Source of the DNA: Escherichia coli
Lineage (GTDB): Bacteria; Pseudomonadota; Gammaproteobacteria; Enterobacterales; Enterobacteriaceae
Strand: one strand, 5' to 3'
Assembly (NCBI RefSeq): GCF_050320075.1
Contig: NZ_CP190018.1
DNA: 64,000 nucleotides
Position numbers and translations under genes: made by a program. Positions 786 through 60,498 of the stretch are shown here, piece by piece; the stretch's first letter is position 1; every line of letters begins with the position of its first letter. Under the pieces are notes generated by a model that saw nothing but the letters and a program-made list of their open reading frames with translations, was not told the origin of the DNA and did not search any database.

Positions 786-789
786 GGTA

Positions 790-1695
790 ATGAAAAAATT
801 CAGCGGCATTATTCCACCGGTATCCAGCACGTTTCATCGTGACGGAACCCTTGATAAAAAGGCAATGCGCGAAGTTGCCGACTTCCTGATTAATAAAGGG
901 GTCGACGGGCTGTTTTATCTGGGTACCGGTGGTGAATTTAGCCAAATGAATACAGCCCAGCGCATGGCGCTCGCCGAAGAAGCTGTAACCATTGTCGACG
1001 GGCGAGTGCCGGTATTGATTGGCGTCGGTTCCCCTTCCACTGACGAAGCGGTCAAACTGGCGCAGCATGCGCAAGCCTACGGCGCTGATGGTATCGTCGC
1101 CATCAACCCCTACTACTGGAAAGTCGCACCACGAAATCTTGACGACTATTACCAGCAGATCGCCCGTAGCGTCACCCTACCAGTGATCCTGTACAACTTT
1201 CCGGATCTGACGGGTCAGGACTTAACCCCGGAAACCGTGACGCGTCTGGCTCTGCAAAACGAGAATATCGTTGGCATCAAAGACACCATCGACAGCGTTG
1301 GTCACTTGCGTACGATGATCAACACAGTTAAGTCGGTACGCCCGTCGTTTTCGGTATTCTGCGGTTACGATGATCATTTGCTGAATACGATGCTGCTGGG
1401 CGGCGACGGTGCGATAACCGCCAGCGCTAACTTTGCTCCGGAACTCTCCGTCGGCATCTACCGCGCCTGGCGTGAAGGCGATCTGGCGACCGCTGCGACG
1501 CTGAATAAAAAACTACTACAACTGCCCGCTATTTACGCCCTCGAAACACCGTTTGTCTCACTGATCAAATACAGCATGCAGTGTGTCGGGCTGCCTGTAG
1601 AGACATATTGCTTACCACCGATTCTTGAAGCATCAGAAGAAGCAAAAGATAAAGTCCACGTGCTGCTTACCGCGCAGGGCATTTTACCAGTCTGA
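790..1695 (+). CDS. yjhH: 2-dehydro-3-deoxy-D-pentonate aldolase (DapA/DHDPS family)
   Basis: ATG at 790 (MKKFSGIIPP...) preceded by GAGG; 301 aa as in K-12 YjhH; DHDPS-family sequence (GTGGEF). Confidence 0.85.
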   Translation: MKKFSGIIPPVSSTFHRDGTLDKKAMREVADFLINKGVDGLFYLGTGGEFSQMNTAQRMALAEEAVTIVDGRVPVLIGVGSPSTDEAVKLAQHAQAYGADGIVAINPYYWKVAPRNLDDYYQQIARSVTLPVILYNFPDLTGQDLTPETVTRLALQNENIVGIKDTIDSVGHLRTMINTVKSVRPSFSVFCGYDDHLLNTMLLGGDGAITASANFAPELSVGIYRAWREGDLATAATLNKKLLQLPAIYALETPFVSLIKYSMQCVGLPVETYCLPPILEASEEAKDKVHVLLTAQGILPV

Positions 1696-1705
1696 GGAGA
1701 AACTC

Positions 1706-3673: not shown

Positions 3674-3704
3674 AAGCATAAATAAAAACATCCAGACACC
3701 TGAA

Positions 3705-3746
3705 TTATCCGACTCTGCATCATTCGTTATTTGCTCAGTCGGATAA
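3705..3746. promoter_or_regulatory. 10-bp perfect inverted repeat (TTATCCGACT ... AGTCGGATAA) between yjhG and yjhF
   Basis: Palindromic arms at 3705-3714 and 3737-3746, no downstream T-run; candidate operator rather than terminator. Confidence 0.25.
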
Positions 3747-3779
3747 TGATGGGTCGCTACCCTGTTATGAGAGGACGTT

Positions 3780-5129
3780 ATGCCACTAATTATCGTTGTG
3801 GCAGGGATTGCTTTACTCCTGCTTTTAACCATAAAAATTAAGCTTAATACGTTTGTTTCGTTAATTATTGTCTCGATTGCTGTCGCCATCGCCAGTGGTA
3901 TGGATTTGAGTAAAGTCGTCACCTCAGTCGAATCCGGGCTTGGCGGTACGCTGGGCCATATTGGTTTGATATTTGGCTTCGGTGTTATGCTCGGTCGCTT
4001 GCTGGCCGATGCGGGTGGTGCGCAGCGAATAGCGCTGACCATGCTGAATTATTTCGGGAAAAATAAACTTGACTGGGCAGTGGTCTGTTCGGCGTTTATT
4101 GTCGGTATCGCACTTTTTTTCGAAGTCGGTTTAATTCTTCTGGTACCTATTTTATTCGCTATTGCCCGTGAAGCAAAAATATCACCGATGTTTATGTGTG
4201 TGCCGATGCTTTCTGGTTTGCTGGTCGCACACGGTTTTTTGCCGCCGCACCCCGGCCCGACTGTTATCGCCAGGGAATATGGCGCTGATGTAGGATTGGT
4301 ACTGATATACGGTATCATTGTCGGCATTCCAACCTTTATTCTTTGCGGCCCGGTATTGAATAAATTCTGCCAGCGCATTATTCCGGACGCCTTTAAAAAA
4401 GAGGGGAATATAGCCTCTCTCGGCGCGACCCGCCGATTCAGCGAAAGCGAAATGCCAGGCTTTGGGATCAGTTTTCTCACGGCAATGCTGCCGGTGATCC
4501 TGATGGCGGTTGTCACCATCATCCAGATGACTCATGCCAAAAGTGCCGCGGATTCTGGCTTATTTTACAACGTGATACTGTTCTTAGGTAATTCGACGAT
4601 CGCCATGCTGATTTCACTGCTGTTCGCGATCTATACCATGGGCCTGGGGCGCGGGAAAACAATCCCTGACCTGATGGATTCTTGCGGAAAAGCTATCGCG
4701 GGTATTGCCGGTCTGCTGCTGATTATCGGTGGTGGTGGTGCATTCAAGCAAGTTCTCATCGACTCTGGCGTTGGTCAGTATATTTCCACCCTGGTTTCGG
4801 GTATGGATATTAACCCGATCTTGATGGCCTGGGGCGTGGCCGCATTCCTGCGTATTTGTCTGGGTTCAGCCACCGTCGCGGCGATCTCTACCGCCGGTCT
4901 GGTCATCCCATTGTTGGCAGTACATCCCAATACCAACCTGGCCTTGATTACGCTGGCTACCGGTGCCGGATCCTGTATTTGTTCTCACGTTAACGATGCC
5001 AGTTTCTGGATGATTAAAGACTTTTTTGGCCTGACCACCAAAGAAACGCTGTTATCCTGGACGTTGATGTCCACACTCTTATCCATCAGTGGGCTGATTT
5101 TTATTCTGCTCGCCAGCTTAGTTTTATAA
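3780..5129 (+). CDS. yjhF: GntP-family permease (putative pentonate transporter)
   Basis: 449 aa polytopic membrane protein; GntP-like sequence; synteny. Confidence 0.85.
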
Positions 5130-5475
5130 TCGGGTTCTTGCCAGTGAGCCAACCTGTTGTTCACTGTCCCCCATAATTTAGTGAGTGACGGCAACCGTCT
5201 GCACGGTGACGAATCGCTGGCGATCAAAAAGGGGCGATATTGAACCGTCGATTATGCTTGATGGGTGTACTCTCAGTAATACTGTAAAGCCGGAGCATGT
5301 CTCCGACTTTACAGTATGGGGGAACAGCAGGCGATCGCTCAAATGGTATGCTGGTTTATTTCATGTAAAAGAATAAAATATCTGTATAAAATCATGCCAC
5401 TGGCAATCTGCATCAACTCTCCGGGTAAACAGGGTTAAGATGAGCATTTCCCCGGTTTAATACAGGTATACAAAA

Positions 5476-6462
5476 GTGGATAGAGATCAAACAAACAGCA
5501 GCCTGTTCAATGATGATCCCGTACTTCATGCAACATGGCTGTACTATCAGGAAGGCAAAAGCCAGACTGAAGTTGCAGCTATCATGGGGGTGTCCCGCGT
5601 CACGGTTGTCAAATACCTGCAAACAGCCCGGGAAAATGGACTGGTTCATATCAACCTGGATGTGAATGTCTTTGGCTCTATCGACGCTGCTTTGCAAATT
5701 CGCGATAAATTCAATCTCCAGAGAGTGATCATCGTGCCGGATGGCGAACATGCCGGAAAACGTGATGATACAAAGCTGATGCGGACTCGCCTTTCACGTG
5801 CCGGTGGCATGTATCTGAATCAGGTGATTGAGAATGGTGATGTGCTGGGGGTTGCCTGGGGAAGAACAATCCATCAGATGAGCAAAACCATGACGCCGAA
5901 GTCATGTAAAAATGTCACCGTTATACAGATGCTCGGTTCCATGCCATCTCAGCCAGACCTGACGATCATTGAATCCTCATCGCAAATCGCCTACAAGCTT
6001 TCAGGCCGTGTCGCCTCGCTGCACGTGCCCGCCGTGGTATCAAGCGCCAGACTGGCCATGGAGTTACAGGCAGAGCCTATTATTCGATCGAATTTTGACG
6101 TTCTGACTCGCTGTACGAAAGCCTTTTTTGTCGTGGGTAACGCGCTTGATGAAAATCCCCTGATTCGGGTGGGCGTGCTGAATAAGAAGGAAATGCAGAC
6201 GTATCGGGATTTAGGCGCAGTAGGTGTCATTTGTGGTCGCTTCTATGACAAGGAAGGGATGCCCGTCGTGGCTGATGTTGACCAGCGTATTCTGGGAATC
6301 AGTCTGGCTCAGCTAAGGCAGATTGAACGGAAGATCTTCCTTGCTGGTGGGGAAAGAGGCTATGACGCAACGTTGGGTGCCCTGCTGGGAGGATATGTCA
6401 CGGACCTGATTGTTGATGAAGGAACGGCAGAGTTTTTGCTGGCGTGTGAATTACCACACTAA
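5476..6462 (+). CDS. yjhU: SorC/DeoR-type sugar-binding transcriptional regulator
   Basis: 328 aa; N-terminal HTH (QTEVAAIMGVSRVTVVKYL) and SorC-like sugar-binding domain. Confidence 0.8.
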   Translation: MDRDQTNSSLFNDDPVLHATWLYYQEGKSQTEVAAIMGVSRVTVVKYLQTARENGLVHINLDVNVFGSIDAALQIRDKFNLQRVIIVPDGEHAGKRDDTKLMRTRLSRAGGMYLNQVIENGDVLGVAWGRTIHQMSKTMTPKSCKNVTVIQMLGSMPSQPDLTIIESSSQIAYKLSGRVASLHVPAVVSSARLAMELQAEPIIRSNFDVLTRCTKAFFVVGNALDENPLIRVGVLNKKEMQTYRDLGAVGVICGRFYDKEGMPVVADVDQRILGISLAQLRQIERKIFLAGGERGYDATLGALLGGYVTDLIVDEGTAEFLLACELPH

Positions 6463-6474
6463 AAGAATGAACAA

Positions 6475-6506
6475 CTGCCCCATGTGGATATGGGGCAGGA
6501 TTTTAT
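6475..6506 (+). terminator. Rho-independent terminator (bidirectional) between convergent yjhU and the transporter gene
   Basis: 9-bp stem CTGCCCCAT/ATGGGGCAG with 6-nt loop, followed by GATTTTATTG; A-rich on the other side. Confidence 0.5.
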
Positions 6507-7360
6507 TGATTAGCGGCGATAATAAGAACAATACCCACAATGTATGAAATAAACATGGTCAGCAGCAGTTTATTGGTTCCGGCTGGCGCACTGGCAAATT
6601 CTCTCCAGATGAAGACTCCCCAGATCACGGCAATCATTGTGGCCCCCTGTCCCAGACCGTAGGAAATGGCATACCCCGCCTGACCAGACGCAATCAGACT
6701 GAATGCCAGACCGACACACCAAATCATACCGCCCAGCCAGCCGCAAACATGATCCCGTAAGCTCCCGGAAAAATACATTTTCCCGTTGACCGGTTCTCCT
6801 GAAATAGGTTTTTTCATGACCAGCGTGTTAAGGACAAAGTTCGACAAGAACAGCCCCACGGCAAACAGAACAAGTGCTGAGTAAGGCGTCATCAGACCGC
6901 TGGCAGGCTGGCTGAAATTGTCAGACATGGAGTCCGCCAAGAAGCGGAAAAACCATCCCATGATGATACCCGCCAGAATGGCAGTAATGAGACCTTTATT
7001 ACGGCGAGATTTATCCGCCTCCTGCGTGACACGACCATAGGCTATCGCGGTAAAAATAATGGCGATCACAACGCAGGCGACACCGAGGAACAGAATGAGC
7101 GGATCGCCCTGCGGATTGCCGATATAGGTGGTGATCACACCCAGAGCCAGTGCCAGCCCCACACCCACAGGAAAAGCTACCGCCATACCGGCAAGATTAA
7201 TAGAAGCGACCAGAAGAATATTGGAAATATTGAAGATAATCCCTGCCAGTATTGCCGACATCAGACTACTGCTGCTCGCCTGCTGAATATCAGGTATAAA
7301 ACTGCGACCGGCTTCGCCCATAGAACCCAGCGTGAAGGCAAATAACAAAGAACACAGCAA
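6503..7360 (-). CDS. Polytopic membrane transporter (DMT-superfamily-like sugar permease?), possible 5' frameshift
   Basis: Hydrophobic throughout; frame stays open about 80 nt upstream of the called TTG start and an out-of-frame ATG (MGVPSILLGLFNWIIAVFF) sits there. Confidence 0.45.
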   Translation of the reverse strand: MLCSLLFAFTLGSMGEAGRSFIPDIQQASSSSLMSAILAGIIFNISNILLVASINLAGMAVAFPVGVGLALALGVITTYIGNPQGDPLILFLGVACVVIAIIFTAIAYGRVTQEADKSRRNKGLITAILAGIIMGWFFRFLADSMSDNFSQPASGLMTPYSALVLFAVGLFLSNFVLNTLVMKKPISGEPVNGKMYFSGSLRDHVCGWLGGMIWCVGLAFSLIASGQAGYAISYGLGQGATMIAVIWGVFIWREFASAPAGTNKLLLTMFISYIVGIVLIIAANQ

Positions 7361-7462
7361 TAATCCAATTGAATAATCCCAATAGAATAGAGGGAACTCC
7401 CATTTTTTATTGCTGACAAGTTTAGTTGTATTGTAAGCGACTCGTCAGAACCGTATTGATAT

Positions 7463-9034
7463 TTACTGAGAGCTCAGATCAACTTTCCAGGGCAACAGAT
7501 CGCGTACCCGGTTTGCCGGCCAGTCCTGGATATGTTCAATGACGTAACGCAGCCACTTTTCTGGCTCCACATTGTTCAGACGGCATGTGCCGATCAGCGA
7601 GTACAACACCGCCGCATGTTCACCACCGCTGTCGGAACCCGCGAACATCCAGTTTTTCCGGCCTACGGCCACTCCCCGTAAGGCGTTCTCTGCGATGTTG
7701 TTGTCGATTTCCACCCAGCCATTACTGCAGTACACGTTCAGTGCATCCCACTGTTTCAGCAGGTATGCGAACGCTTTTGCCGTATCTGAGTGACGCGACA
7801 GTGTTTTCATCTGTTGCTGTATCCAGTCATACAGTGACTGCATCAGTGGCGCGGCTCTGGCTTTTCTTGCCGCCAGACGCTGTTCTGCTGAACAGCCCCG
7901 GACCTCTGCCTCGATGGCATACAGTTCACCGATACGCTGCAGGGCTTCCGTGGTGATGTAGGTGGGCGCTCTTGCATGCACATCGTGGATTTTTCTCCGG
8001 GCATGAGCCATACACGCGGCTTCCGTTATTCTGCCGGATTCGTATAACGCCCGGTAACCACCGTAAGCATCGGCCTGAAGCACACCGCTGTAACCGGCCA
8101 GGTGATTTTGTGGATGGATACCTTTCCGGTCCGGACTGTACGCGAACCAGACCGCCGGGGGCATCTGTGAACCGGCGTTACGGTCATCACGGACGTAGAC
8201 CCACAGCCGGGCTGTCCGGGTTTTACCGCTGCCCGGCTCCTGGACCGGGACGGGGATATCATCAGCATGGACTTTACCGGGCATCAGCACATACTGGCGC
8301 AGGACGTCATACAGCGGCTCCAGCAGTTCAGCAACAGCACCTGTCCAGCGCCCCAGTGTGGCACGGCTCAGCTCCACTCCCTGACGACGGTATATTTCTG
8401 ACTGGCGGTATAACGGCAGATGGTCTGCATATTTCCCGGTGACAACATGGGCCAGAAGCCCCGCTCCGGCATAACTGCGTGCAATGGGTTTTGAAGGTAC
8501 TGGTGCCTGCACGATATGGTCGCACCGGCAACAGGCCTGTTTCGGACGTTGTGTTTCGATAACCTTAAAGGCGCTGCTGATAAGCTCCAGTTGCTCTGAC
8601 ACATCACATCCCAGAGAACTGAGTTCACCACCACAGGCAGGACAGCATTCCTCTTCCGGCCGGATAACCCGGGTTTCACGGGGAAGTGAGGCCGGTAACG
8701 GTTTACGGGCTGAAGACTGGCGCAGGGCGGATGGCAGTACCGGGTCATATTGCTCACCCAGCGTTTCCGCCATTTCTTCCTGAAGTGCGCTGATTCGCTC
8801 CTGTGCTTCCTGTATCTGCCGTTCGGTTTTTGCACGAAGTTTTTCTGAGCTTTTACCGAACTGCATACGTTGCAGTTTCGCAACCAGCGCCTTCAGCCGG
8901 TTGATTTCGGAAGCATAAGCCGCCACCCGCTGTGAGAGCAGGCGGTTGTATTCAGCCATCTGGCGGATGGTGTCCTGTTGCGTCTGCAACAGTGCCCGCA
9001 GGCGGGCGTTCTCATGAGCAAGTGAGGTGTCCAT
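7463..9034 (-). CDS. IS66-family transposase (TnpC)
   Basis: 523 aa; typical IS66 transposase with N-terminal coiled coil, CxxC zinc motifs and DDE core. Confidence 0.9.
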
Positions 9035-9053
9035 ATCCTCACTTTACAACGGG

Positions 9054-9401
9054 TTATATGCGGATTCCAGCGCGTTCCGTTCGTTTCGGGTGCTTCCAGT
9101 TGATACCTTCAAGAAGCATGGATAACTGAGCCGGAGTAAGGTGCACCTTGCCGTCACGGGTGACTGGCCAGACGAAGCGGCCCCGCTCCAGGCGTTTGGT
9201 GAAGAGGCACAGTCCGTCACTGTCAGCCCACAACACTTTTATCTGGTCACCCCGGCGTCCGCGGAAGATGAACAGGTGTCCGGAGAACGGGTCATCCTTC
9301 AGGACGTTCTGAACTTTTGATGCCAGGCCGTTAAAGCCATTTCGCATATCGGTGATACCTGCAACCAGCCAGATACGCGAACCTGCAGGGAGAGATATCA
9401 T
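9054..9401 (-). CDS. IS66 Orf2 (TnpB-like accessory protein)
   Basis: 115 aa; conserved IS66 orf2 sequence (WLVAGITDMRNGFNGL). Confidence 0.9.
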   Translation of the reverse strand: MISLPAGSRIWLVAGITDMRNGFNGLASKVQNVLKDDPFSGHLFIFRGRRGDQIKVLWADSDGLCLFTKRLERGRFVWPVTRDGKVHLTPAQLSMLLEGINWKHPKRTERAGIRI

Positions 9402-10078
9402 CAGTGGCTGCTCCCTTTTATTTCGCGGATAAGTGTCTGTAATAACGCCGGCGTCAGTTTACCTTTAAGCCTGAGAGTTCCGGCCGGCAGAACCAGCTCA
9501 CAACACAGACTGTCGGACGGTGTATTTATCTGCTCTGGTTCCTGTGCGGGGGCCGGGATTTTATTATCCGGCTCCGGCGTTAACGTCACGGGAAGCAGTG
9601 CCGGCATATTTTTTCCGGAAGGCAGCAGGCCACCTTTCCGGTATTGATGGCGCCAGTTGAAGAGCAGGTTATCGTTGATTCCGTTTTCCCGGGCGATCTG
9701 CGCCACACAGGCTCCGGGCTGCAGTGACTGCTCCACTAAGGCGATTTTAAACTCATAAGGGAAGTTGGGCCGCCGGGGACGTTTTTTTACCACGGGGGCT
9801 TCGGATATAACGGTGCTTTCAGGACGTACGACTGGTACCGTGGAAAATTGTCCGTAAAGGCAGGCATCAAGTTCCTGCTCCGACATGCCTGCGGGCAAAG
9901 GCCACGAAAGGCCAGCTCTCCGAAAGCGCACGAACATACTACAAACTGTTGATTTTGGTACACCCAGGCGACGCCCGGCCACAACCCGGGGTAAATGTTC
10001 TTCAAAGTGAAGACGTAAAGCTTCAGTGATCCAGGTCCGGTGTTTCATACGATAGTGTCCATTAAAAATGATGGACAT
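9401..10078 (-). CDS. IS66 Orf1 (TnpA-like, HTH accessory protein)
   Basis: 225 aa; start overlaps the orf2 stop, as is typical of IS66 operons. Confidence 0.75.
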   Translation of the reverse strand: MSIIFNGHYRMKHRTWITEALRLHFEEHLPRVVAGRRLGVPKSTVCSMFVRFRRAGLSWPLPAGMSEQELDACLYGQFSTVPVVRPESTVISEAPVVKKRPRRPNFPYEFKIALVEQSLQPGACVAQIARENGINDNLLFNWRHQYRKGGLLPSGKNMPALLPVTLTPEPDNKIPAPAQEPEQINTPSDSLCCELVLPAGTLRLKGKLTPALLQTLIREIKGSSH

Positions 10079-10317
10079 TATTTTTGTAGAGCCGGAGGAA
10101 ACAGACCAGACGGTTTAAATGAGCCGGTTACGTTGTATTCGCCCATGAACCCCAGCAAATCATGGTAATAAAACACATTATTATGGCGACAGCATACGAT
10201 TCCACGATAAACATAAATAACTCCTTGTGGTAGTTATAATCAATCGTTGTGGACAGAGGGAATAGCAGCCATTCTGCGAATGGCTGTCATATGTTATTAA
10301 TTAAAATAAAGCTGTAA

Positions 10318-10959
10318 TTACGCTTTCAAACCATACGTTTTGAATTTTTCAAGGACGATGGTCATTTCGGCTTCAGACAGCACGGGAACATCGTGATGTA
10401 ATCCGCCACATTTGATGTATAAATCAGCCAGCGTCTCGGTTTCACCCGCCAGCCACAACGTCTTTTCCAGCGTGACGTCCATGGCCAGCATACCGTGGTG
10501 CTGCATCAGCAAGGACTTACTTTCTCTGATTCCTTTAGATACACCGTCGGCCAGTTCAGGACTGCCAAAGGTATAATAGGGAATACAGGGAATATGATCC
10601 GTCCCCGATACCGCCACCATATAATGAATGGCCGGAATTGAATGATTATGTATTGCCACCGCCGTGGAATTCACCGCATGCGTATGTATGACAGCATTCA
10701 ATTCTGGTCTGGCTTTATAACACGCCAGATGAAATAACCATTCACTTGATGGTATTTTACCCGCTTCAGGTATTCCCTTATCGTCTACAAAGACAATCAT
10801 GTCCGGCGTCATCTTTGAATAAGCGATCCCACTCGGCGTAATCAACATGCCACCGGTATACCTGGCACTCACATTACCTGATGTTCCTTGATTAAGACCT
10901 GACGCATTCATTTCCCGACAAGTGGAAATGATTTTTTCTGCTAACTTAATCCGTTCCAT
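10318..10959 (-). CDS. Class II aldolase/adducin-family enzyme (putative 5-deoxyribulose-1-P / methylthioribulose-1-P aldolase)
   Basis: 213 aa; class II aldolase fold with histidine-rich metal-site residues; directly downstream of mtnA and mtnK homologues. Confidence 0.7.
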   Translation of the reverse strand: MERIKLAEKIISTCREMNASGLNQGTSGNVSARYTGGMLITPSGIAYSKMTPDMIVFVDDKGIPEAGKIPSSEWLFHLACYKARPELNAVIHTHAVNSTAVAIHNHSIPAIHYMVAVSGTDHIPCIPYYTFGSPELADGVSKGIRESKSLLMQHHGMLAMDVTLEKTLWLAGETETLADLYIKCGGLHHDVPVLSEAEMTIVLEKFKTYGLKA

Positions 10960-10989
10960 TCCTGATCCTTAATAGCAATGGCCGCCGTT

Positions 10990-20747: not shown

Positions 20748-21938
20748 TTATAAAGAGGGCTTTATATTCCTTTCATAATATTCTGAAGGAGTAATATTAC
20801 CTCTCATGAATAATTGATAGTCATTTTCGGGGTGATGGATATAATATTTACCACTTCCATCTTCACCATGTTGCAAAGGAGGCAGATCAGATAATGCATC
20901 CTTTACAGATACCCAAGATTCCTTATCTTCTGTTAATTTTTGTGGAGGTTCAATTGAAAATAAAGGGTCGTTTGAACCAACCAATATAACCCTTTTTCGG
21001 CGCTGAGGGATTGCATAATGTTCAGAGTTTAATATCCATCCATTCATAGTTTTCATGGTTGATGAGAATTCTTCTTTGACTCTTTCAAAGACCTTACCTT
21101 TTTCCATATTCAACAAACCAGCAACATTTTCAAAAATAAAACCGTTTGGTTTTATCTCATTTAAGAGAGATTTATAATGCATAAAAAGTGAATTTCTTGG
21201 ATCATCCATTGTTCTGGCATTTCCTGCCGTAGAAAATCCCTGGCATGGGGGTCCACCAAGTATCCATAATTGTTTATCAAAATATAATTTCTTAAATCCT
21301 GATATTTTATCTGCTATTTTTGAAAAAGTTTCATTATCAGAAATGCTGCCACATAAAACTTCTTTGTGAACATTGTTTGAATATGTTTGTAGATATTTTT
21401 CTTCAATATCATTCGCCAATAATGGAGTCCATCCAGCCCATTTGAATCCTAGTCCCAGCCCTCCAGCTCCGGAAAATAAATCGATATAATAACCAGTATT
21501 ACCTATCGCCTTCTCTATTTCTTTCGCAATCAGAAAAGCTAAAAATGGGGGCACTGCATTACCGATTTGGGTATTAATTGCTGTTTGACCTCCGAAGAAA
21601 ATAAAATCATCCGGGAACGATTGTAGTCTTGCAGCTTCTCTCTGGGATAGAACACGATCTTGCTCATAGTGAATATGGCAACCATTCCCAGGTCGGTTAA
21701 AATATGTATTGATAGTATATGCAGGCATATCTGGAAGTAATCTACCGTAGTATGTTGAACGGCTTCCTTTTCCTTGTGCATAACTATCCCTAATTTGCTC
21801 TATTCTTTTAGACGGTACATCTAAAGGAATATTTTTCCAGTTGCCACCTGGCGGTACTGAGTTAACAATCATCATATCCAATTCACTTAGCTTTGCTGCC
21901 TTGTGATTGGGAATCATAAATGTTTCACTTTTAGTCAT
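20748..21938 (-). CDS. DNA cytosine-5 methyltransferase with apparently permuted motif order
   Basis: Motif I DLFSGAGGLGLGF, IV GGPPCQGFS, VI FENV, VIII QRRKRV; motif IX/X-like block (LQSFPDDF...IGNAVPP) lies N-terminal to motif I. Confidence 0.85.
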   Translation of the reverse strand: MTKSETFMIPNHKAAKLSELDMMIVNSVPPGGNWKNIPLDVPSKRIEQIRDSYAQGKGSRSTYYGRLLPDMPAYTINTYFNRPGNGCHIHYEQDRVLSQREAARLQSFPDDFIFFGGQTAINTQIGNAVPPFLAFLIAKEIEKAIGNTGYYIDLFSGAGGLGLGFKWAGWTPLLANDIEEKYLQTYSNNVHKEVLCGSISDNETFSKIADKISGFKKLYFDKQLWILGGPPCQGFSTAGNARTMDDPRNSLFMHYKSLLNEIKPNGFIFENVAGLLNMEKGKVFERVKEEFSSTMKTMNGWILNSEHYAIPQRRKRVILVGSNDPLFSIEPPQKLTEDKESWVSVKDALSDLPPLQHGEDGSGKYYIHHPENDYQLFMRGNITPSEYYERNIKPSL

Positions 21939-23571
21939 AATGTTGAAAAATCCTCAATAAACTTTCTTTTTCAGCTAACTCAATCTTATCAAATGAAGAC
22001 AGAAGCTTATTAAATTCATTCAAATCCAATTTGTAAATATTTTTGGCAACATAAGCCTCAATTTTCAACTCAGCATCACAACATCCCTCTATGCAAGAAA
22101 TCACAAGTTGTTTTAATTCAGAATGTTGTAATAATATTTTTTCAGACGGTATTGCAGTTTTTCGTAAGGCTGACAATGATACATGACCAGTAGCTAAAAA
22201 GCTTCTTAATTGAAATTCAAAACAAAGGGAGTTTATAATACCAAGCAAACTAAAGAGCGAATCTTGCGAACCACTTTTATAATAGACCACCCCTAATGAA
22301 TTCCCTGCCAAAGAGTTAGGAGGTATTATCGTTGCAATCATTCGCCTTTTTTGACTCGGGCGTGAAATGTCACGCCATGCAATCCTTACGAAATTAGAAT
22401 TGGATAGAACCTTATCAATTTTTTTCGTTATTCTTAAGCTCTTCTCATTATGAAAATTATACCTCCCAATCATTTTTCCTTTAATGAATAATAATCCGCC
22501 GCCACTTTTTTGTGTCCAGTCACTACTACCAGTTTCATCTATTTCTCTTCCTGCCCATATCTCTCCATTTTTTTCCAGACTACCCCATGTTGGGTATCCC
22601 TCTTGCAGCTTTCTTAACAAATGAACGGCATGAACACCTTGAGATACCGGAATGCTAAGATATTGAGAATCTATACTAGACAAATCAAAAAAACCTAGTG
22701 ATTTAATATTTAAGTTTTTATCATACACACTAAGTTGAATATTATCATTAAGGGATTCACCTTTATTAAAAATAAAAGAACATGAAGAAACATCAGCACC
22801 GCCGAATAATTTAGCCTCAGCTGGATAATAATTTATGCAATCAATCCTCCCTGAATTAAAAAACTTTTCACGTAATATGTACGATTGTTCATCTGCGAAA
22901 AAAGATGCAGGCATAACTATAGCTACCAATCCATTTTTATTACATATTTCTAAGCTAAGTTCTGCACCAACACGTGAAAGATTAGTCCCCCACCCAGCAA
23001 ATTTACGCTTCGGCTGAGAATATGGCAATACTCTTGACAAATAATCATCAAACTCACGAAGAGAGTCTATATACATCGATTTCATAGATGGTTCAAAAAA
23101 ATCGAGCTCTCTAGAATCTGGTTTTATATTCTCCCAAGGCGGATTGGTTATAACACAATCAAAATAATCAACATATTTTTTAAATTCATAAAAAACATCA
23201 CTATTTTTTATAGTAATGTTAATATTTGCACCTGCTAACTTAAGTTCAGACAACGCATTTTTAGCATAAGTGAGGCCTGTATTTTCTATATCGAACAGAT
23301 AAACATTCCACTCTACATCTGGAAAACCATTTATCATCCATTGTTTAATAAGCAATGTAATAAGTCGACCATCCCCTGAAAATGGATCTGCGACATTATA
23401 ACTTTTTTTATCACAGGAATTTATCAATGGTAATAACTTCTCTATCATCAAAAGAGCTATTTTTGGATCTGTATAGTATTTACCTGTCGCTTTTTTAGTG
23501 AATTTTGTTGTCTCGTCCAAGGACAGTGAATTAATTAAATGGATATGTTTCATGTAAAATATCTCTTCCAT
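21931..23571 (-). CDS. N6-adenine DNA methyltransferase (gamma-class, NPPW)
   Basis: Motif I DPFSGDGRL and catalytic NPPW; stop overlaps the start of the C5-methyltransferase gene. Confidence 0.8.
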   Translation of the reverse strand: MEEIFYMKHIHLINSLSLDETTKFTKKATGKYYTDPKIALLMIEKLLPLINSCDKKSYNVADPFSGDGRLITLLIKQWMINGFPDVEWNVYLFDIENTGLTYAKNALSELKLAGANINITIKNSDVFYEFKKYVDYFDCVITNPPWENIKPDSRELDFFEPSMKSMYIDSLREFDDYLSRVLPYSQPKRKFAGWGTNLSRVGAELSLEICNKNGLVAIVMPASFFADEQSYILREKFFNSGRIDCINYYPAEAKLFGGADVSSCSFIFNKGESLNDNIQLSVYDKNLNIKSLGFFDLSSIDSQYLSIPVSQGVHAVHLLRKLQEGYPTWGSLEKNGEIWAGREIDETGSSDWTQKSGGGLLFIKGKMIGRYNFHNEKSLRITKKIDKVLSNSNFVRIAWRDISRPSQKRRMIATIIPPNSLAGNSLGVVYYKSGSQDSLFSLLGIINSLCFEFQLRSFLATGHVSLSALRKTAIPSEKILLQHSELKQLVISCIEGCCDAELKIEAYVAKNIYKLDLNEFNKLLSSFDKIELAEKESLLRIFQHYD

Positions 23572-23785: not shown

Positions 23786-24456
23786 TTACCATATCAATAA
23801 ATAGCTTAACCCGTTATCTCGATACCCCTTAAGAACCCCTTCCGCAACTGCAACATAATCTACGCTCATCCACATGCCTGGCTTTAACTGTTCCTGATAT
23901 AAGTTGACAGTTTTCTGTCCGTAAAACGGTTGATGAACTTCATCGGGCGTTTTGTATTTCAATGCCAAATGTGACCGCTCATGGTTATAAATTGCCACGA
24001 ATTCTTTTACCATTTACCGGCCCTACGTCAGCTCTGCAGGACGCGAGAGTAAAAACTCATTTTCAGGATTCCGTTTATCCACTCAGCCTGCGCATTCTGG
24101 TGGCAGTTATAACCATTAGTCATTGAACAGGTTATTGATAAATAATTAAAAAACTCAGCTTTCTGGCTCGCCTGCTCAAGCTGTTCTTCAAGTTCCCTGA
24201 TTCTTTGCTCGGGTGTCAGCGGGACAGTCGCCAGAGCCACAGGCAGTCTCCTCTTTACCTGGTCAGGAAGTCCGGGGCTCCAGTCAAGCCGGCCATATTT
24301 ACGCAACCAGACAAGAACGGTGGAGCGCCCCTGAATGCCATAACTGCAGCCGGCCTGTTTATAAGTCATCTCGCCTTTTTCAACCTTCTCAACAACGGCT
24401 ATTTTAAAGGATAGAGGATAATCACGTTGAGTGCGTTTGAACCCAGACATCATCAC
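23786..24456 (-). mobile_element. IS3-family element remnant (orfA plus truncated orfB fragments)
   Basis: 142-aa ORF with IS3 OrfA-like N-terminus running into integrase-core residues (NAQAEWINGILK); 75-aa ORF matching a transposase C-terminus (YNHERSHLALKYKTP). Confidence 0.6.
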
Positions 24457-24553
24457 GTTCTCCGGGTTTAAGTCAGGAACGTGTCATAGCTATTCAGGAC
24501 GGGTCACCGACACAAAAAAAGTCGCCCTTGAGCGACTCGATTTGCATACGGTA

Positions 24554-24576
24554 TGGTGCGAAGGCCGGACTCGAAC
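24554..24576 (-). repeat. 3'-terminal fragment of a tRNA-Leu gene (leuX-like T-arm and acceptor end); putative island att repeat
   Basis: Minus-strand GTTCGAGTCCGGCCTTCGCACCA matches the leuX 3' end as I recall it except for one missing G; the 5' two-thirds of the tRNA is absent. Confidence 0.6.
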
Positions 24577-24994
24577 ATGTGACTTAACCTCATGATTTAA
24601 AATTGTTAATAATAAACAATATCATCTTATACCAACACAGATACCAACACGAAAAATCACTGGTTTTCGGCATCGAACCAGGACAATCAGCTCCTGATTG
24701 AGATACCGAGCTCTGTTACTCGTCATCTTCCTCGACAGGCTTCATTGCATCAAGTAGTACTCGCACCATCGCGATAGAACCAATCCGGATAAAAGCATCT
24801 TCTCCATCTATATCTGTTAACTGATATCGCTCACTTGATGCCGGATAAGTGTGTCGATTTGCAGCTGTGTACTCTTTTGTACAGCCAGAATGTGGCTGAC
24901 TGAGGTGGAGCAGATAATGTCCCCGTTGACCACTTCCGGACGGGAGGCTGTGATTTCAGACATAATTGATATTCCTTTTTGCAGATAAATGAAA

Positions 24995-25019
24995 ACGCCA
25001 GCCCTGTTCAGGCTGGCGT
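24995..25019 (-). terminator. Candidate rho-independent terminator downstream of the CP4-like cassette
   Basis: 9-bp stem ACGCCAGCC/GGCTGGCGT with 7-nt loop; U-rich tract follows on the minus strand. Confidence 0.35.
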
Positions 25020-25264
25020 CAGTGGAATGAAGTATGGTGAGTAATATTTATCGGTTCTGGTGCAGAAGCTGCAGTTGGCGCAGGGTACGGATACCCTCCC
25101 TGGCCTGTTCGATACAGGGCAACAGTGCTGCCGAATCCGTTTTATCCTCATCGTTGTCAAAGATAATTCCCGATTCGCAGTCGATATTGTCCTGCAGCCA
25201 CACAATCAGAATATCCAGCGCCGTTTCTGTGGTTAATGATTTCATCCTGTGTCTTTTGTCCTGG

Positions 25265-25753
25265 TTACCAGTTGAAAGTGGGTAAATCCTGCAGACATTC
25301 AGCACCGGCATCCAGATGAATGAGACTGACGCCATAACGCCGGATGAGTGTGACAACCAGACGGCGGAACGTTCTGGACAGCCCCAGGCGTTTAAGCCGC
25401 AGAACCGGGTATGACCACGCATCGGTACGTAACAGATATCCGCTACCTGTGAAATGAATCCATTCTGATTCGCCGGTGTCATTCGTCTGATTTGACAGCG
25501 AGTACAACCAGGCATTGTCCGTTTCCGTGATATGTGCGGTACTGCAGCGTATGCCGGTAAGGGCCGCAGATGGTGGCGTGCGCTCTGCTGATGTCCGGTC
25601 AGATTCATCAACAACACGAAGGGAGTAACCGTTATCGCAGACCACGTTAATCAGTTCAGCGAGAGTAACACCATCGACGTCAACGACAATGCGCCCCATG
25701 TTCAGTGCCTGCACGTTAATGCTGTCGGCTTCCAGCGTCAGGGCCAGTTTCAT
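25265..25753 (-). CDS. YeeW-like prophage protein
   Basis: Follows the cbtA homologue with ATGA start/stop overlap at 25750-25753; true start taken at MKLALTLE. Confidence 0.55.
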
Positions 25754-26127
25754 TGTTTCGCCCACGGATGTTTACCCAGGGTAATGTTATTTACCGTTCT
25801 GTAATTGTCGCGGGCCATCAGGCCGGTTGCCCGGCGGGCCCGGAGGATATCAATACTGTTTATTAACTGAGAACGAGTACAGACGCTGAATCCCGGCTGG
25901 TCGGTACGCACCAGTGCGTATTTTTCAACGAGAAAGTTCACCGCATCACACAGTGAAATGCCTGCCTCAATATGCTGCTCAATCACACGTTCATCAGCGA
26001 ACGGTGTGTCATTCAGTGTGAGGCCGTAATGCTGGTCCAGCAGTCGGGTGAGCAGTGTCTGCCAGATGGTGACGGGAGACTGGCAATGCGATGCCTCCCG
26101 TACGTGTGTATCGGGTAATGTGTTCAT
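25750..26127 (-). CDS. cbtA: CbtA/YeeV/YkfI-family toxin (type IV toxin-antitoxin system)
   Basis: 124 aa from the internal ATG at 26127 ([15 protein letters not shown]...); family sequence and position after the antitoxin homologue. Confidence 0.85.
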
Positions 26128-26216
26128 ACTGAAGATTTTCCTGATATGCAGAGATGAAAAATGGAAAAGTGGCGTGGTGAAAGCACCAGGCCGGAGAAGA
26201 AGGTTATTCTGGAGAG

Positions 26217-26585
26217 TTACTTTTTCGTTTCGGGCGTCGGATAAACAGCCATATAAACGTAGCCACAACTGCCGAGGGTGTCGGCTTCGCAGGTCAGCCT
26301 TTTTGCATACAGCGTGACGGTATGCTGATGGCGGGGATTCAGTTCACCGCTGGTGAGCATGAGTTCCAGTTGTTTCATCAGCAGCGGAAAGGCCTGGTCC
26401 AGATGGTACGCATCCGCGTCGCTGAACCGGCCTCTGATACCGGCGCGGTCTGCAAGGTAATGCAACCGGTTACCCTCCTGCACCAGACGTGCCCCAAAAC
26501 AGGGCGTCACGGTGCAGGGCAGTCCCCACCAGGTGCGGTCGTTATTGTCGTCGGGAAGCGTTGTCCCGGGGAGTGTGTCTGACAC
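26217..26585 (-). CDS. cbeA: CbeA/YeeU/YfjZ-family antitoxin
   Basis: 122 aa; family sequence; immediately upstream of the toxin gene. Confidence 0.85.
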
Positions 26586-26664
26586 GATAAAATCCTCACA
26601 GAAAATTGGTTAAGAATGGTCCGGTGGTGGCGATAATTCTGCTCTTCTGAATGCCCTTCCAGAC

Positions 26665-26886
26665 TCAGTTCAGGGTGACGCTCATCAGCCGGACATACGG
26701 ACCAAAACTGTCCTTACGGCGTTCTGCAAACACAGCCAGCACACCGGGAATATCCTGTACTTCACGGCCGGTATATGTATCCGTGCTACCGTGCCAGCGG
26801 TATTTACCGGTACAGAACGGAAAAAGACGGGATGCAGGATGCTGACGGTGAATACGCATGGCTTCACCACGGGTGATGATTTTCAT
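26665..26886 (-). CDS. YeeT-family protein (DUF987)
   Basis: 73 aa, MKIITRGEAMRIH...; conserved position upstream of the toxin-antitoxin pair. Confidence 0.8.
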   Translation of the reverse strand: MKIITRGEAMRIHRQHPASRLFPFCTGKYRWHGSTDTYTGREVQDIPGVLAVFAERRKDSFGPYVRLMSVTLN

Positions 26887-26972
26887 GAGAATAGTCCTCC
26901 TGAATGTGAAAGTAAGAAACAGCTGAGAAAGAGAAACTGAAGTGATATGAAGGTGATTGTGACGGTGACGGG

Positions 26973-27449
26973 TTAAAGCAGACCGTGTTCGGCAAAGGAG
27001 AATACCTGGCTGCCACCGACTATCAGATGGTCCGGCACCCGGATATCCACCAGGGCCAGCGCCTGTACCAGACGTTCAGTGATAAGCCGGTCTGCCTTAC
27101 TGGGGGTGACTTCACCGGACGGGTGATTGTGCGCCAGCACCACGGCAGCGGCATTGTGGTACAGGGCACGTTTAATCACCTCCCGGGGATGGACTTCTGT
27201 GCGGTTGATGGTGCCTGTGAAGAGGGTTTCACCCGCAATCAGCTGATTCTGGTTGTTCAGATACAGCACCCGGAACTCTTCCCGCTCCAGTCCTGCCATG
27301 TTCAGAATCAGCCATTCCCGTGCCGCATGCGTGGAGGTGAAGGCCACGCCGGGTTCATGAAGATGGCGGTCCAGGGTTTTCAGGGCCCGCTGAATGAGGC
27401 TGCGCTCGCCGGGCGTCATCTCTCCGGGCAGAAAGGAAAGCTGTTGCAT
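26973..27449 (-). CDS. RadC-like JAB-domain protein (YeeS/YfjY/YkfG family)
   Basis: 158 aa; JAMM-like HNHPSG motif. Confidence 0.85.
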   Translation of the reverse strand: MQQLSFLPGEMTPGERSLIQRALKTLDRHLHEPGVAFTSTHAAREWLILNMAGLEREEFRVLYLNNQNQLIAGETLFTGTINRTEVHPREVIKRALYHNAAAVVLAHNHPSGEVTPSKADRLITERLVQALALVDIRVPDHLIVGGSQVFSFAEHGLL

Positions 27450-27463
27450 TGTTCCGGCCCCTT

Positions 27464-27973
27464 TCAGTCAATGATGCGCATAATGGCGTTGCATTCCGGA
27501 TGTTGCAGGGCGTAATCCCGCAACCGGTAATAATGGACCGTCATGGCATAACACTCCGTACGACAGGCATGATGACTGTACGTCATCAGACAGGCAGCAA
27601 TGCCGGCGGCTTCCGGGCTCATTTCAGCGCGGTTACCGTTCATGGCATTGAACAGTACCCAGGTTTCTCCATCATCTTCATCCGGTTCGGGCGCCATAAA
27701 TGCGCCGCCGTTATTCAGGGTGTACAGATTCCAGATACCACCGCAGTAGTCTTCACACAGACGGTCCATCCAGCCGAAGACACGGGGCTCCAGGGTCACC
27801 CACTGTGGAATGAGGCCAAAGTGCTGCGGCCAGAAGCTGATGCGCTGTTCATCAGGGACGGGAGTGGCAACCAGTTGAGACTGGTTATTCCCTGATGCAG
27901 TAGTTACGGAAACAGAAGGTGTGGTGGAATTATGCGAAGAGGTTGTCATGAGATTATTCCTTATAAAAAGCAA
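27464..27973 (-). CDS. Antirestriction protein (KlcA/ArdB-like, YfjX family)
   Basis: Family-like sequence and conserved cassette position; start codon uncertain. Confidence 0.7.
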   Translation of the reverse strand: MLFIRNNLMTTSSHNSTTPSVSVTTASGNNQSQLVATPVPDEQRISFWPQHFGLIPQWVTLEPRVFGWMDRLCEDYCGGIWNLYTLNNGGAFMAPEPDEDDGETWVLFNAMNGNRAEMSPEAAGIAACLMTYSHHACRTECYAMTVHYYRLRDYALQHPECNAIMRIID

Positions 27974-28040
27974 ATGAATGGAAGAATGCCTGGGGACTGG
28001 TACAGACGTGAGTCAGGGCTGCACTTTCAGGGAAACAGCA

Positions 28041-28859
28041 TCAGCGCATGCTCTCCAGCAGCGTTTCTGCCATCACCCACAATGCGCGGTTGAGCTTAAT
28101 ATCGGTGTCGATGCTGTGAATGGCACGGGTGTGGATACGTTTTCCTCTGGCACTGCGACCGGAAATTCCGCCTTTCAGCATATTCTCCTGGATGGTCTGA
28201 TAAGCACTCCACAGGTCCTTACCGTAATCCTCCCGGCGTCGTGGTGTCAGAATGTCGGCAGTGGTGACTGGCTGATGTTTGTCACCATAACGGTAAGTCA
28301 GTGCCGCCTGTGCCAGCGCCTGGCGTGCCGGTGGCGGCAGGACCAGCGACTGCATGGCATCACGCTTCTCCTCTATCCGGTCAAAAACCCCCACCACCTC
28401 GTAAGCCCCTTCAATAACTTTCTCCACCACATTTCCCCGGTGCGGAACACGCACTTCCCCCAGAGACTGACCACAGACGCATCCGTTCTGGCAGACGAAC
28501 CTGAAGTAACCCGGCAGCATCTGGTAGCTGGAGGTACCGTCATGAGAGTTGAGCAGAATAATTTCAGGGACATGTTCTCCGTTTATCTCTCCGGCCCGCC
28601 GCAGACGCAGCATATGTTTGGTGTATCCCCGGCGGCCCGGGTCGCGCACACGGGTCTGGCAGGCGAAGAACGGCTGAAAGCCTTCCCGCTGCAGACTTTC
28701 CAGCACGGTGATGGTGGGGATATACGTATAGCGTTCACTGCGGGAGGTATGCCGGTCTTCCCCAAAAATACCGGGTACATAGTGCATCAGTTCTTCGTGT
28801 GTCAGCGGACGGTCACGGCGTATCTGATTCGCATAACCAAAACGACTGGCTAATTGCAT
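28041..28859 (-). CDS. DUF932-family protein (YfjQ/YafZ-like)
   Basis: 272 aa; conserved cassette position downstream of the YfjP-like GTPase and YfjR-like regulator. Confidence 0.7.
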   Translation of the reverse strand: MQLASRFGYANQIRRDRPLTHEELMHYVPGIFGEDRHTSRSERYTYIPTITVLESLQREGFQPFFACQTRVRDPGRRGYTKHMLRLRRAGEINGEHVPEIILLNSHDGTSSYQMLPGYFRFVCQNGCVCGQSLGEVRVPHRGNVVEKVIEGAYEVVGVFDRIEEKRDAMQSLVLPPPARQALAQAALTYRYGDKHQPVTTADILTPRRREDYGKDLWSAYQTIQENMLKGGISGRSARGKRIHTRAIHSIDTDIKLNRALWVMAETLLESMR

Positions 28860-28948
28860 ACTTTGCTCCTTATGAATGAATTAGCGGTATAAACGAAAAG
28901 GCCGCGTCTCCCGGAGAAGACGCGGCCTGATGGATGAAATGAAGACGT

Positions 28949-29158
28949 TTATTGCCTGAGAATTCCCTCACTGGCGAGATACGAATTTAGCTGTTTTCCG
29001 GCATCAGGTTCAAAATTCCAGCACCGCCAGCGTAGCTGCCCTTCGGCATTGCGGATAACCAGCCGGAAATGCGTTCCCTGGTCATCTTCAATAAGCACAT
29101 TGCGGTAAGCTGTTGTGACGGCAACCGCCTGTTCGCGTGAGAAAGGGCCTTCGGGCAA
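28949..29158 (-). CDS. Small hypothetical protein (69 aa)
   Basis: ORF with TTG start; no recognisable motifs. Confidence 0.35.
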
Positions 29159-29187
29159 TAAAACAGGGTGGCAGTCCTACATACCGG

Positions 29188-29865
29188 CTATTTTCCGATA
29201 AATTCAACGCTGGCGCCGGTGGCATTACCGTCAGCACCAACCGTGACGGTCACTTTGTCGTACGCACGGTCTTCAGGATTGAATACTTCAAACTCAACCT
29301 TATTGCCTTTTACTTCGTAAGAGCCAAAATCAGCGGTTTCTGTTGTTTCCTCGTCATATTCCCGGGCGTATGCCTGCCGGGCAGCCTGCAGGACGGAATC
29401 TTTATTAATAGTGGTCGTCTGTTTCGGGGAAAAACCGGCAAGTGATGTGACAAATTTCGGACAGACCTTCAGCATATCACCGCGGGTGAATTCCATTCGT
29501 ACACCAAATGCCTGTAAAACGGACACATCACGCTCTGCTATGGAGTGAACGGCTTTTTTGACCATTTCCGGCGCCTGTCCGATTTCCACCTCAACAGCCC
29601 TGAATCCCGTCTGCTGATTACACATTTGTGATGTGGGGATCAGGTTACCGTTAATACTGATACGGCTGCCCAGGAGCGTCTGTACACCATTCGGGCATCC
29701 CTGCATCAGGCCGGTAATACCAATCGTGCCATTTTTCAGCATTACCAGCGCCTGACCATCTTCCGTCATGGTCTGACACCAGCCGTTTTTGACAGCCCAG
29801 TTGCCGGCGGAGGCGGAGAATGATGCCACAGTGAACAGCAGGGGAAAAAGAGCTCTGGTATTCAT
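29188..29865 (-). CDS. Hypothetical secreted protein with signal peptide
   Basis: Start taken at the internal ATG (MNTRALFPLLFTVASFSASA), giving a cleavable signal-peptide-like N-terminus; about 225 aa. Confidence 0.5.
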   Translation of the reverse strand: MNTRALFPLLFTVASFSASAGNWAVKNGWCQTMTEDGQALVMLKNGTIGITGLMQGCPNGVQTLLGSRISINGNLIPTSQMCNQQTGFRAVEVEIGQAPEMVKKAVHSIAERDVSVLQAFGVRMEFTRGDMLKVCPKFVTSLAGFSPKQTTTINKDSVLQAARQAYAREYDEETTETADFGSYEVKGNKVEFEVFNPEDRAYDKVTVTVGADGNATGASVEFIGK

Positions 29866-30012
29866 GACTGACCTCTGAAATGAACGTACGGTGTTATTGA
29901 TAATGATGGAAGGTATGCAGTGACTGTTCAGGGAATGACGTAGCCGTATATTTAGTTTTCTGTTCAACATATTGTCTCCATACCTGTCGGGACGGCTTTG
30001 GCAGGCCGGCAA

Positions 30013-30693
30013 TCACAGGTTAAAGGTGTTGATAAGTTTATGGATGAAAGAGAAATGTGGCAGGGCGGAGATAAAACGCTCTTCAGCGACCAGACTGTGG
30101 ATGTGGCCTCTCCGTTCAAACCGTTCTGATGTCAGGCTGACTGATTTGATATCTGCCAGAGGAAAGACCTGCAGTTTTCCCTTCTGTAACGCGATCAGAT
30201 ACCAGCTACCGCTGTAATAAATGAGCCGGCAGGGCTCCAGTGACGGATACCATCGCTCAGTCATCAGAGAGATGTGGATACACTGTCTTATTGCCAGGAT
30301 GAGTTGCGAGAAACACTCGGGGAACGTTGCAGTGATATCCGGCGCCGGTAGCCAGATAAGGCAGGGAGAGGGCTCCTGGTTGTCGGTAAGACAGGTTATC
30401 AGTCGTCCGTTCCGGAGCGGAAGTATCCGTGCGATCCCGGTATTCTGTATAAAAGAAAGCATTTCAGGGATCGCACCTGGGCTGCTCTGTCGTCTGAGGC
30501 TGTACCTGCCATTTCTGTACTCTAAATCCAGGTGAACCAGACGCTGATGAAAATCGCGCTGTAAAGTACGTTCTGTAACGCCAAATTCATCTGACAGTGT
30601 TTTTAGTGACAGAGATTCTCCGGCCATCAGTCGGCTGATAATGAGTGATAAGCGAACCGCCAGGCGATCATGCCGGGAACGATTATCAGACAT
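30013..30693 (-). CDS. HTH/WYL-type transcriptional regulator (YfjR-like)
   Basis: 226 aa; N-terminal HTH (LSDEFGVTERTLQRDF); same position as yfjR in CP4-57. Confidence 0.7.
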   Translation of the reverse strand: MSDNRSRHDRLAVRLSLIISRLMAGESLSLKTLSDEFGVTERTLQRDFHQRLVHLDLEYRNGRYSLRRQSSPGAIPEMLSFIQNTGIARILPLRNGRLITCLTDNQEPSPCLIWLPAPDITATFPECFSQLILAIRQCIHISLMTERWYPSLEPCRLIYYSGSWYLIALQKGKLQVFPLADIKSVSLTSERFERRGHIHSLVAEERFISALPHFSFIHKLINTFNL

Positions 30694-30895
30694 AGATGTG
30701 CACTCCGTAAGAAAACATCTTTTATTTCATGATGTTATTATGCATCATGATGTTGAAAGGATGTGTCGCATCCGGATAATCAGGAATAAAATGCAGCAGA
30801 AAAAATATTCTTTTAATTATCTGATTTTTAAGCATGATTTCATAAAAAGAAGAATGCTCGTTAATCCAGCGACACATCCTGTCGGCGTGAGTGTG

Positions 30896-60222: not shown

Positions 60223-60498
60223 GTGGCTTCTGTTTCTATCAGCTGTCCCTCCTGTTCAGCTACTGACGGAGTGGTGCGTAACGGCAAAAGCACCGCCGGA
60301 CATCAGCGCTATCTCTGCTCTCACTGCCGTAAAACATGGCAACTGCAGTTCACTTACACCGCTTCTCAACCCGGTACGCACCAGAAAATCATTGATATGG
60401 CCATGAATGGCGTTGGATGCCGGGCAACAGCCCGCATTATGGGCGTTGGCCTCAACACGATTTTACGTCACTTAAAAAACTCAGGCCGCAGTCGGTAA
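60223..60498 (+). CDS. insA: IS1 InsA
   Basis: Identical protein to the copy-1 InsA. Confidence 0.95.

Follow-up and report, generated by a model that had tools for sequence, protein, structure and literature searches.

The tRNA gene leuX is a classic integration hotspot (PMC7545054). Pathogenicity islands found there, such as PAI II536 and PAI-EC14142-leuX of ST131, carry a P4-type integrase beside leuX, and leuX-derived direct repeats serve as their attL and attR. PAI II536 excises through direct repeats of 18 bp, while the leuX island of ST131 has a truncated right repeat that has been linked to its stability (PMC9686529). The locus described here was analysed in a stretch of 64,000 nucleotides of Escherichia coli DNA (contig NZ_CP190018.1), below called the window. 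It likewise has a P4-type integrase beside leuX and leuX-derived direct repeats, and its right repeat is imperfect, as is known from leuX pathogenicity islands, where imperfect or truncated right repeats go together with stability (PMC9686529). There are also differences: the repeat of such islands is quoted as 18 bp in the literature, while the identity here covers 24 nt minus one, and the cargo consists of dnd/dpt genes, autotransporters and metabolic genes instead of hly, cnf or pap.

A similar arrangement has been described for GI-pheV, although at another tRNA gene and another chromosomal site. This island has an intP4-type integrase and a yee/CP4-like module at its distal end, as here, and its attR is an imperfect repeat of 23 bp that is one G short just before CACCA (TTCGATTCCGAGTCCGG-CACCA), which is also the case here (PMC11537424). 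The attR without this G is the commonest one among pheV islands, and a single mismatch in such repeats cuts island deletion by orders of magnitude (PMC11537424).

Phage P4 (X51522) shares with the locus both its target gene, leuX, and the 20-bp attP core annotated at 4078-4097 (GAGTCCGGCCTTCGGCACCA), which is contained in the fragment studied here. The layout agrees as well: in both, tandem arm repeats stand about 53-54 nt away from the core, and more repeats are found beside the start of the integrase gene. However, the arm repeats of P4 are GGGGGCA while those of the leuX island are TGTTGGTA, and the P' arm of the island carries its own leuX terminator, which P4 does not have. Further, P4 is a satellite of 11.6 kb while the leuX island is a mosaic of 76 kb, and the core in the island attR is one G short, unlike that of P4.

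In K-12 the corresponding element is KpLE2 with its integrase IntB. From leuX through the terminator (type A, see below) and the P' arm to intB, K-12 is 97.7% identical at the nucleotide level to the leuX-integrase region that belongs to our locus, and the same arm motifs are found, but intB is a pseudogene while the integrase in strain YZLc1-3, the nearest genome, is intact. Between leuX and fimB, K-12 has no attR or orphan leuX repeat, and the extent of KpLE2 can therefore not be defined by repeats. The yjh genes belong to KpLE2 according to the K-12 annotation, whereas in the window they lie outside the repeat pair. The stretch from yjhI to yjhU (window 1-6560) is 99.6% identical to K-12 (24241-30800 of the K-12 segment compared), and the similarity stops exactly at the IS1F boundary of K-12.

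By comparison with these systems, the fragment at 24554-24576 of the window is a textbook case, the attR of an island that a P4-family integrase placed at leuX. Features of this kind are already known, and no new kind of system is involved.

An orphan leuX 3' end and its counterpart

An earlier note on this DNA had reported a 23-nt match to the 3' end of tRNA-Leu on the minus strand, with one G missing and with no tRNA body upstream. Both statements agree with what we find. On the minus strand, positions 24554-24576 read GTTCGAGTCCGGCCTTCGCACCA, which is the final 24 nt of leuX without one G of a GG pair, when compared with the intact leuX of YZLc1-3, which terminates in ...GCCGGTTCGAGTCCGGCCTTCGGCACCA. 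The sequence upstream of the fragment (…GGTTAAGTCACAT) does not resemble the leuX body. ARAGORN predicts no tRNA in the whole 64-kb window, and Rfam gives no match at the gathering threshold, nor at a permissive E<=10 in the region 24300-24850. The fragment lacks a complete cloverleaf according to both programs, and no intact tRNA gene spans the position. It is a genuine orphan leuX 3' end without a tRNA body. A chance repeat is also contradicted: the pattern occurs a single time in the 64-kb window when up to 3 mismatches are allowed (<=3) and in 0 of 100 dinucleotide-preserving shuffles. Past the 23 nt, the resemblance to the leuX locus extends into a diverged 47-nt copy of a terminator at 24507-24553.

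All 64,000 bases of the window can be aligned to NZ_CP123240.1, the chromosome of strain YZLc1-3 from chicken, with 6 substitutions and 0 gaps (99.991% identity). By the annotation of this record, the fragment lies between a block with Eco31I-type restriction-modification (RM), McrBC and DHAP genes and a CP4-like cassette. The GC content changes at the fragment, from 31-38% to 50-55%. Annotation and GC step both bear out the location that had been proposed, at the boundary between the defence/DHAP block and the cassette. The features of the window are as follows, where the names of the att parts follow the reading that we prefer.

1-6560, unstranded: yjhI to yjhU, outside the repeat pair, 99.6% identical to K-12.
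6561-23571, unstranded: block outside the island with a GRP transporter, ISCro1, DHAP-shunt genes, McrBC and Eco31I-type RM; low GC, absent from K-12.
23786-24506, minus strand: IS3-family element, internally deleted, whose end (TGACCCGTCC…) abuts the terminator (annotation and comparison).
Within 23786-24506, minus strand: helix-turn-helix (HTH) part of the IS3-family orfA at 24028-24456 and tail of orfB at 23786-24013.
24507-24553, minus strand: displaced leuX terminator of what we read as the native type ('type B'), with a hairpin at 24538-24519 and then a T tract (sequence comparison).
24554-24576, minus strand: attR core, corresponding to the 3'-terminal 24 nt of leuX without one G (GTTCGAGTCCGGCCTTCG-CACCA), including the 20-bp P4 att core.
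24577-24715, minus strand: island-side (P) arm of attR, AT-rich, including the arm repeats; common, up to the core, to islands with differing downstream flanks.
24627-24650, minus strand: putative arm-type repeats, a tandem pair of 12 nt each (GTGTTGGTATCT and GTGTTGGTATAA), located in the P arm at 54 nt upstream from the P4-type core.
24716-64000, unstranded: interior of the repeat-bounded leuX island, up to the window end (annotation of the 99.99%-identical record).
Within the island, at its distal end: CP4-like cassette with DUF957, DUF5983, CbtA/YeeU, DUF987, RadC-JAB, antirestriction, DUF932, DUF905 and GTPase genes.
Within 24716-64000, after the cassette: IS-rich cargo.
41974-42207, plus strand: small AlpA-family HTH protein of 77 aa (Pfam PF05930, E = 2e-10), candidate excisionase (recombination directionality factor).

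For the IS3 remnant, a search for a far-end inverted repeat that matches its end at the terminator found none.

The other end of the element lies outside the window, and the intact leuX and integrase are known from the 99.991%-identical NZ_CP123240.1 alone. There, the minus strand carries the intact tRNA-Leu(CAA) gene leuX (4508294-4508378), which has the same orientation as the fragment and is located 76,148 bp to its right. Next to it is an intact tyrosine integrase of 421 aa with the domains Arm-DNA-bind_3, Phage_int_M and Phage_integrase, which is 59.5% identical to the Int of phage P4 over 97% of its length. The earlier proposal, that the fragment is a direct repeat left by an integrase-mediated insertion at leuX, is supported by these two genes, both present 76 kb away on the same strand in this near-identical genome. 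In the 150 kb from uxuB to mgtA there are two copies only of the leuX 3' end, the intact gene and the fragment; when up to 5 errors are allowed (<=5), the search for a third repeat over the same 150 kb returns only 12-14-mers at the level of chance.

The arms on the two sides of the element share a motif. The 8-mer TGTTGGTA occurs 10 times in the 150 kb, and half of these occurrences (5/10) are in the two att arms: two copies beside attR and three within 60 nt between leuX and the start of the integrase. The tandem 12-mers at 24650-24627 end 54 nt before the P4-type core, while the tandem repeats of P4 attP end 53 nt before the core. Both the arm and its repeats are conserved in ATCC 25922, AR_0017 and PCN061. 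Given this clustering in the att arms and the analogy with P4, the TGTTGGTA repeats are putative arm-binding sites of the leuX integrase.

The fragment thus combines a core derived from a tRNA 3' end (23 of 24 nt), leuX with an integrase at the other end, and common motifs in both arms. We estimate the probability at about 0.9 that it represents the attR core at the distal junction of a composite island of ~76 kb that was put into leuX by an IntB/P4-family tyrosine integrase.

A decayed P4 satellite prophage might also have left an attR here, as the core is the P4 att core, P4 integrates at leuX, and P4-like prophages sit at leuX in some strains, e.g. NCTC9041. However, the P arm has TGTTGGTA repeats and not GGGGGCA, and the same repeats are found beside the IntB-type integrase at attL; the adjoining genes are those of a CP4-like cassette, with no P4 genes. 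Such an origin is very improbable. That the fragment matches by chance, or is the tail left by decay of a duplicated tRNA gene, is favoured by nothing but its short length. This has to be set against the absence of the pattern from all shuffles and against a 33-mer, covering the core without the G and the type B terminator, that is present in 550 of 5426 complete genomes (among them the ST131 strain EC958), always once per genome. The boundary with the island arm is also exact and shared, and the terminator copy follows in register. This explanation is effectively refuted.

Terminators and the exact end of the island

The terminator that follows the fragment (type B) differs from the one that follows the intact leuX of YZLc1-3 and K-12 (type A). 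An intact leuX followed by type B is present in 743 of 5426 complete E. coli genomes; four of these were examined, and three of them (1303, PS10-3 and RM13514) have no integrase. The terminators were also compared between genera, in a survey of species-representative genomes with 49 tRNA-Leu(CAA) loci. B-like terminators, found in Pantoea, Erwinia, Enterobacter and one E. coli, have no P4-like integrase in the available flank (14/14), while types A and C are near-identical across genera, with a P4-like integrase downstream at +184 to +202 each time (12/12). There is an exception: in OkiPb01681 a B-like terminator is followed by a P' arm and a frameshifted integrase.

Because of the 743 genomes and the integrase survey across genera, we read type B as the native leuX terminator and type A as island-borne, located within the P' arm. 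The opposite assignment, where type B derives from the island, was considered since the intact leuX of both YZLc1-3 and RM10042 has type A; it is rejected by the same two sets of data.

The classical model of integration into tRNA genes predicts that the original 3' end of the tRNA gene is displaced together with its flank. The fragment and the type B terminator would then be the original leuX 3' end and flank, moved away by the insertion. On the island, attP would have contained its own copy of the leuX 3' end, and strand exchange by the integrase would have taken place within the common core. The intact leuX (attL) would as a result be followed by the island-borne type A terminator, the P' arm with arm-type sites and the integrase gene, while the original 3' end with its native type B terminator would have been pushed 76 kb away. 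There it would have been fused to the P arm of the island, with its two tandem arm-type sites at P4-like spacing, and one G of the core would have been lost later.

Other genomes show where the island ends. In AR_0017 the same island end, with arm repeats and core, is followed by a type C terminator, a P'-arm remnant and then nanS'/nanM/fimB, and the RM/DHAP/yjh block is wholly absent. In PCN061 the same island end leads to a perfect core and then to a genuine P4 P' arm with an N-terminal remnant of an integrase. As the same island end is joined to different flanks, the island ends exactly at the core. The junction that had been suggested at this position is thus an exact boundary, with the same island end in alternative contexts on one hand and unsplit leuX sites on the other. 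For the comparison with genomes that lack the insertion, which the earlier note had proposed, there are the 743 with an intact leuX followed by type B and 12, RM10042 included, in which an intact leuX is joined to the same IS3 remnant. Non-island sequence directly after the core and the existence of unoccupied sites both fit an attR.

Paralogous CP4-like cassettes are also found at other tRNA sites, but what they have in common with this one is limited to 25060-24839. An island end common to those sites is ruled out, and the final ~260 nt up to the core belong to leuX islands alone.

When RM10042 (20262-20600 of the segment used) is compared with the window (24150-24576), it has an intact leuX and a type A terminator, and then the IS3 remnant that in the window follows type B. 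This mosaic is not accounted for by a simple history of integration and excision.

From these comparisons, the island has the CP4-like cassette as its far end, and what lies outside, in a variable interval between leuX and nanS, comprises the IS3 remnant, the RM/McrBC/DHAP block and the yjh genes. RefSeq does not annotate where the IntB-type leuX island truly ends on the right. The fragment defines this end, and its main value is for annotation. Further, it places the DHAP-shunt cluster, McrBC, the Eco31I-type genes and the yjh genes of KpLE2 outside the integrase-bounded element, in a separately variable leuX-nanS hotspot.

Composite island and the block beyond the repeat

The earlier note had also suggested that two or more islands are integrated in tandem. 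One part of this is supported, as the remnant of a second integrase is present within the 76 kb to the right of the fragment. The other part, two islands that flank the fragment, is not: there is no third repeat and no integrase to the left, the terminator is of the native type, and the left block occurs independently of the island.

The second integrase is also P4-type and is represented by its 3' end (the last ~150 nt), at 4503726-4503877 of NZ_CP123240.1 and thus outside the window, with 72% nucleotide identity. It is located 4.4 kb from the intact integrase, just before the dpt/dnd genes for phosphorothioation defence, and it has no leuX repeat of its own. The interval from leuX to the outermost repeat therefore contains more than one integrase gene or remnant. 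Judging from this remnant, the 76 kb to the right of the fragment is a composite island to which more than one integrase-borne element contributed and in which the internal junction is lost.

An internal leuX repeat followed by a P' arm and the integrase, or integrase remnant, of a second element was not found. The interval between the fragment and fimB contains neither an integrase, whole or as a remnant, nor another leuX repeat. At genuine tandem junctions at leuX, as in strain 143 and PCN061, an orphan core is followed by an island-type terminator or by a P' arm with an integrase remnant.

It should still be considered that two integrase-borne islands could meet at the fragment, which would then be a hybrid att site. 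In this case the defence/DHAP block would represent an older leuX island that lost its integrase and P' arm to the IS3-family element. The block is indeed foreign (31-38% GC) and absent from K-12, the IS3 remnant lies exactly where a P' arm would start, and the strains just mentioned show that tandem junctions occur at the leuX locus. In the literature on the DHAP shunt, this gene cluster is described as located at the end of a leuX genomic island (PMC10986504). Even the terminator leaves some room, since a B-like terminator can adjoin an integrase, as in OkiPb01681, or a P'-arm remnant, as in strain 1303. However, in general this terminator is of the type without integrase (14/14), while types A and C always come with one (12/12), and the region from the fragment to fimB holds neither an integrase or its remnant nor a leuX repeat. 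Further, AR_0017 has the same island end beside nanS' without the left block, and genomes without an integrase hold other defence modules at the same place. Taken together, a hybrid site between two islands is quite unlikely.

Instead, we read the left block as a variable defence hotspot driven by recombination, and not as a tandem island brought in by an integrase. This reading, from sequence comparison, is based on the lack of an integrase or repeat up to fimB, on the native-type sequence that adjoins the fragment and on the variability between strains, where type I RM, McrBC, Zorya or PT-dependent nucleases are found at the same place.

Some properties of the left block can be described in addition. 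The DHAP-shunt genes ald2/mtnA/mtnK (window 10318-13374) are not enclosed by the two leuX direct repeats but lie beyond attR, towards fimB. The RM block at 18996-23571 is type IIS, of the Eco31I/Alw26I family, with one endonuclease, a C5 and an N6 methyltransferase; its GC content is 31-38%, against 50-55% in the CP4-like cassette. McrB is intact here (15532-17607), while it is split by ISEc52 in ATCC 25922. At 6503-10078 of the window, ISCro1, of the IS66 family, adjoins the GRP sugar-transporter gene, which is 858 nt long here and 1005 nt in ATCC 25922; from this comparison, ISCro1 probably truncated the gene.

The missing G and island stability

The junction region found in the 550 genomes is also present in Nissle 1917 and ATCC 25922, the latter with the core without the G followed by type B. 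A perfect core at the same island end is seen in 7 genomes only. From these 7 genomes, the missing G is by sequence a derived mutation and not a property of the integration reaction. That the G was already lacking in the attP of the island is unlikely for the same reason.

The G is also missing in attR copies with different flanks, and a single late mutation fits this only if the flanks were exchanged afterwards. The attR copies of AR_0017 (9491-9530 of the segment used) and ATCC 25922 (21122-21144, likewise) lack the G, yet have GTTTGAG, as in P4 attP, in place of GTTCGAG. The copy in AR_0017 also has an 8-nt duplication (TTCGCACC), after which the different terminator type follows.

As excision needs matching cores, the loss of the G probably lowers or abolishes excision and helps to fix the island. 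The one-base defect in attR would thus be a simple reason for the stable inheritance of the island in major lineages such as ST131, ST73/Nissle and ATCC 25922.

The same loss, of a G before CACCA, is found in leuX attR copies with different flanks, in the 550 genomes and in the commonest pheV attR. It could in principle be a systematic signature of 'locking' in P4-family islands, either produced in passing when strands are exchanged at a heterologous core or repeatedly selected because it immobilises beneficial islands, and not a single accident inherited by descent. We regard this as unlikely. The parallel with pheV may be coincidence, survivorship or mechanistic, and it is the sole mildly novel lead of the analysis.

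Two repeat structures were also noted inside the island. A pair of IS1A elements, inverted and ~99% identical (49911-50608 on the minus strand and 60223-60920 on the plus strand), brackets about 9.6 kb with genes for a malic enzyme, DcuC, an RpiR regulator, an aspartase-family enzyme, a porin and a DUF4886 protein, an arrangement that resembles a composite transposon. Finally, two direct repeats of ~440 nt that are 87% identical (37266-37698 and 43420-43861) are located near IS256-family remnants.
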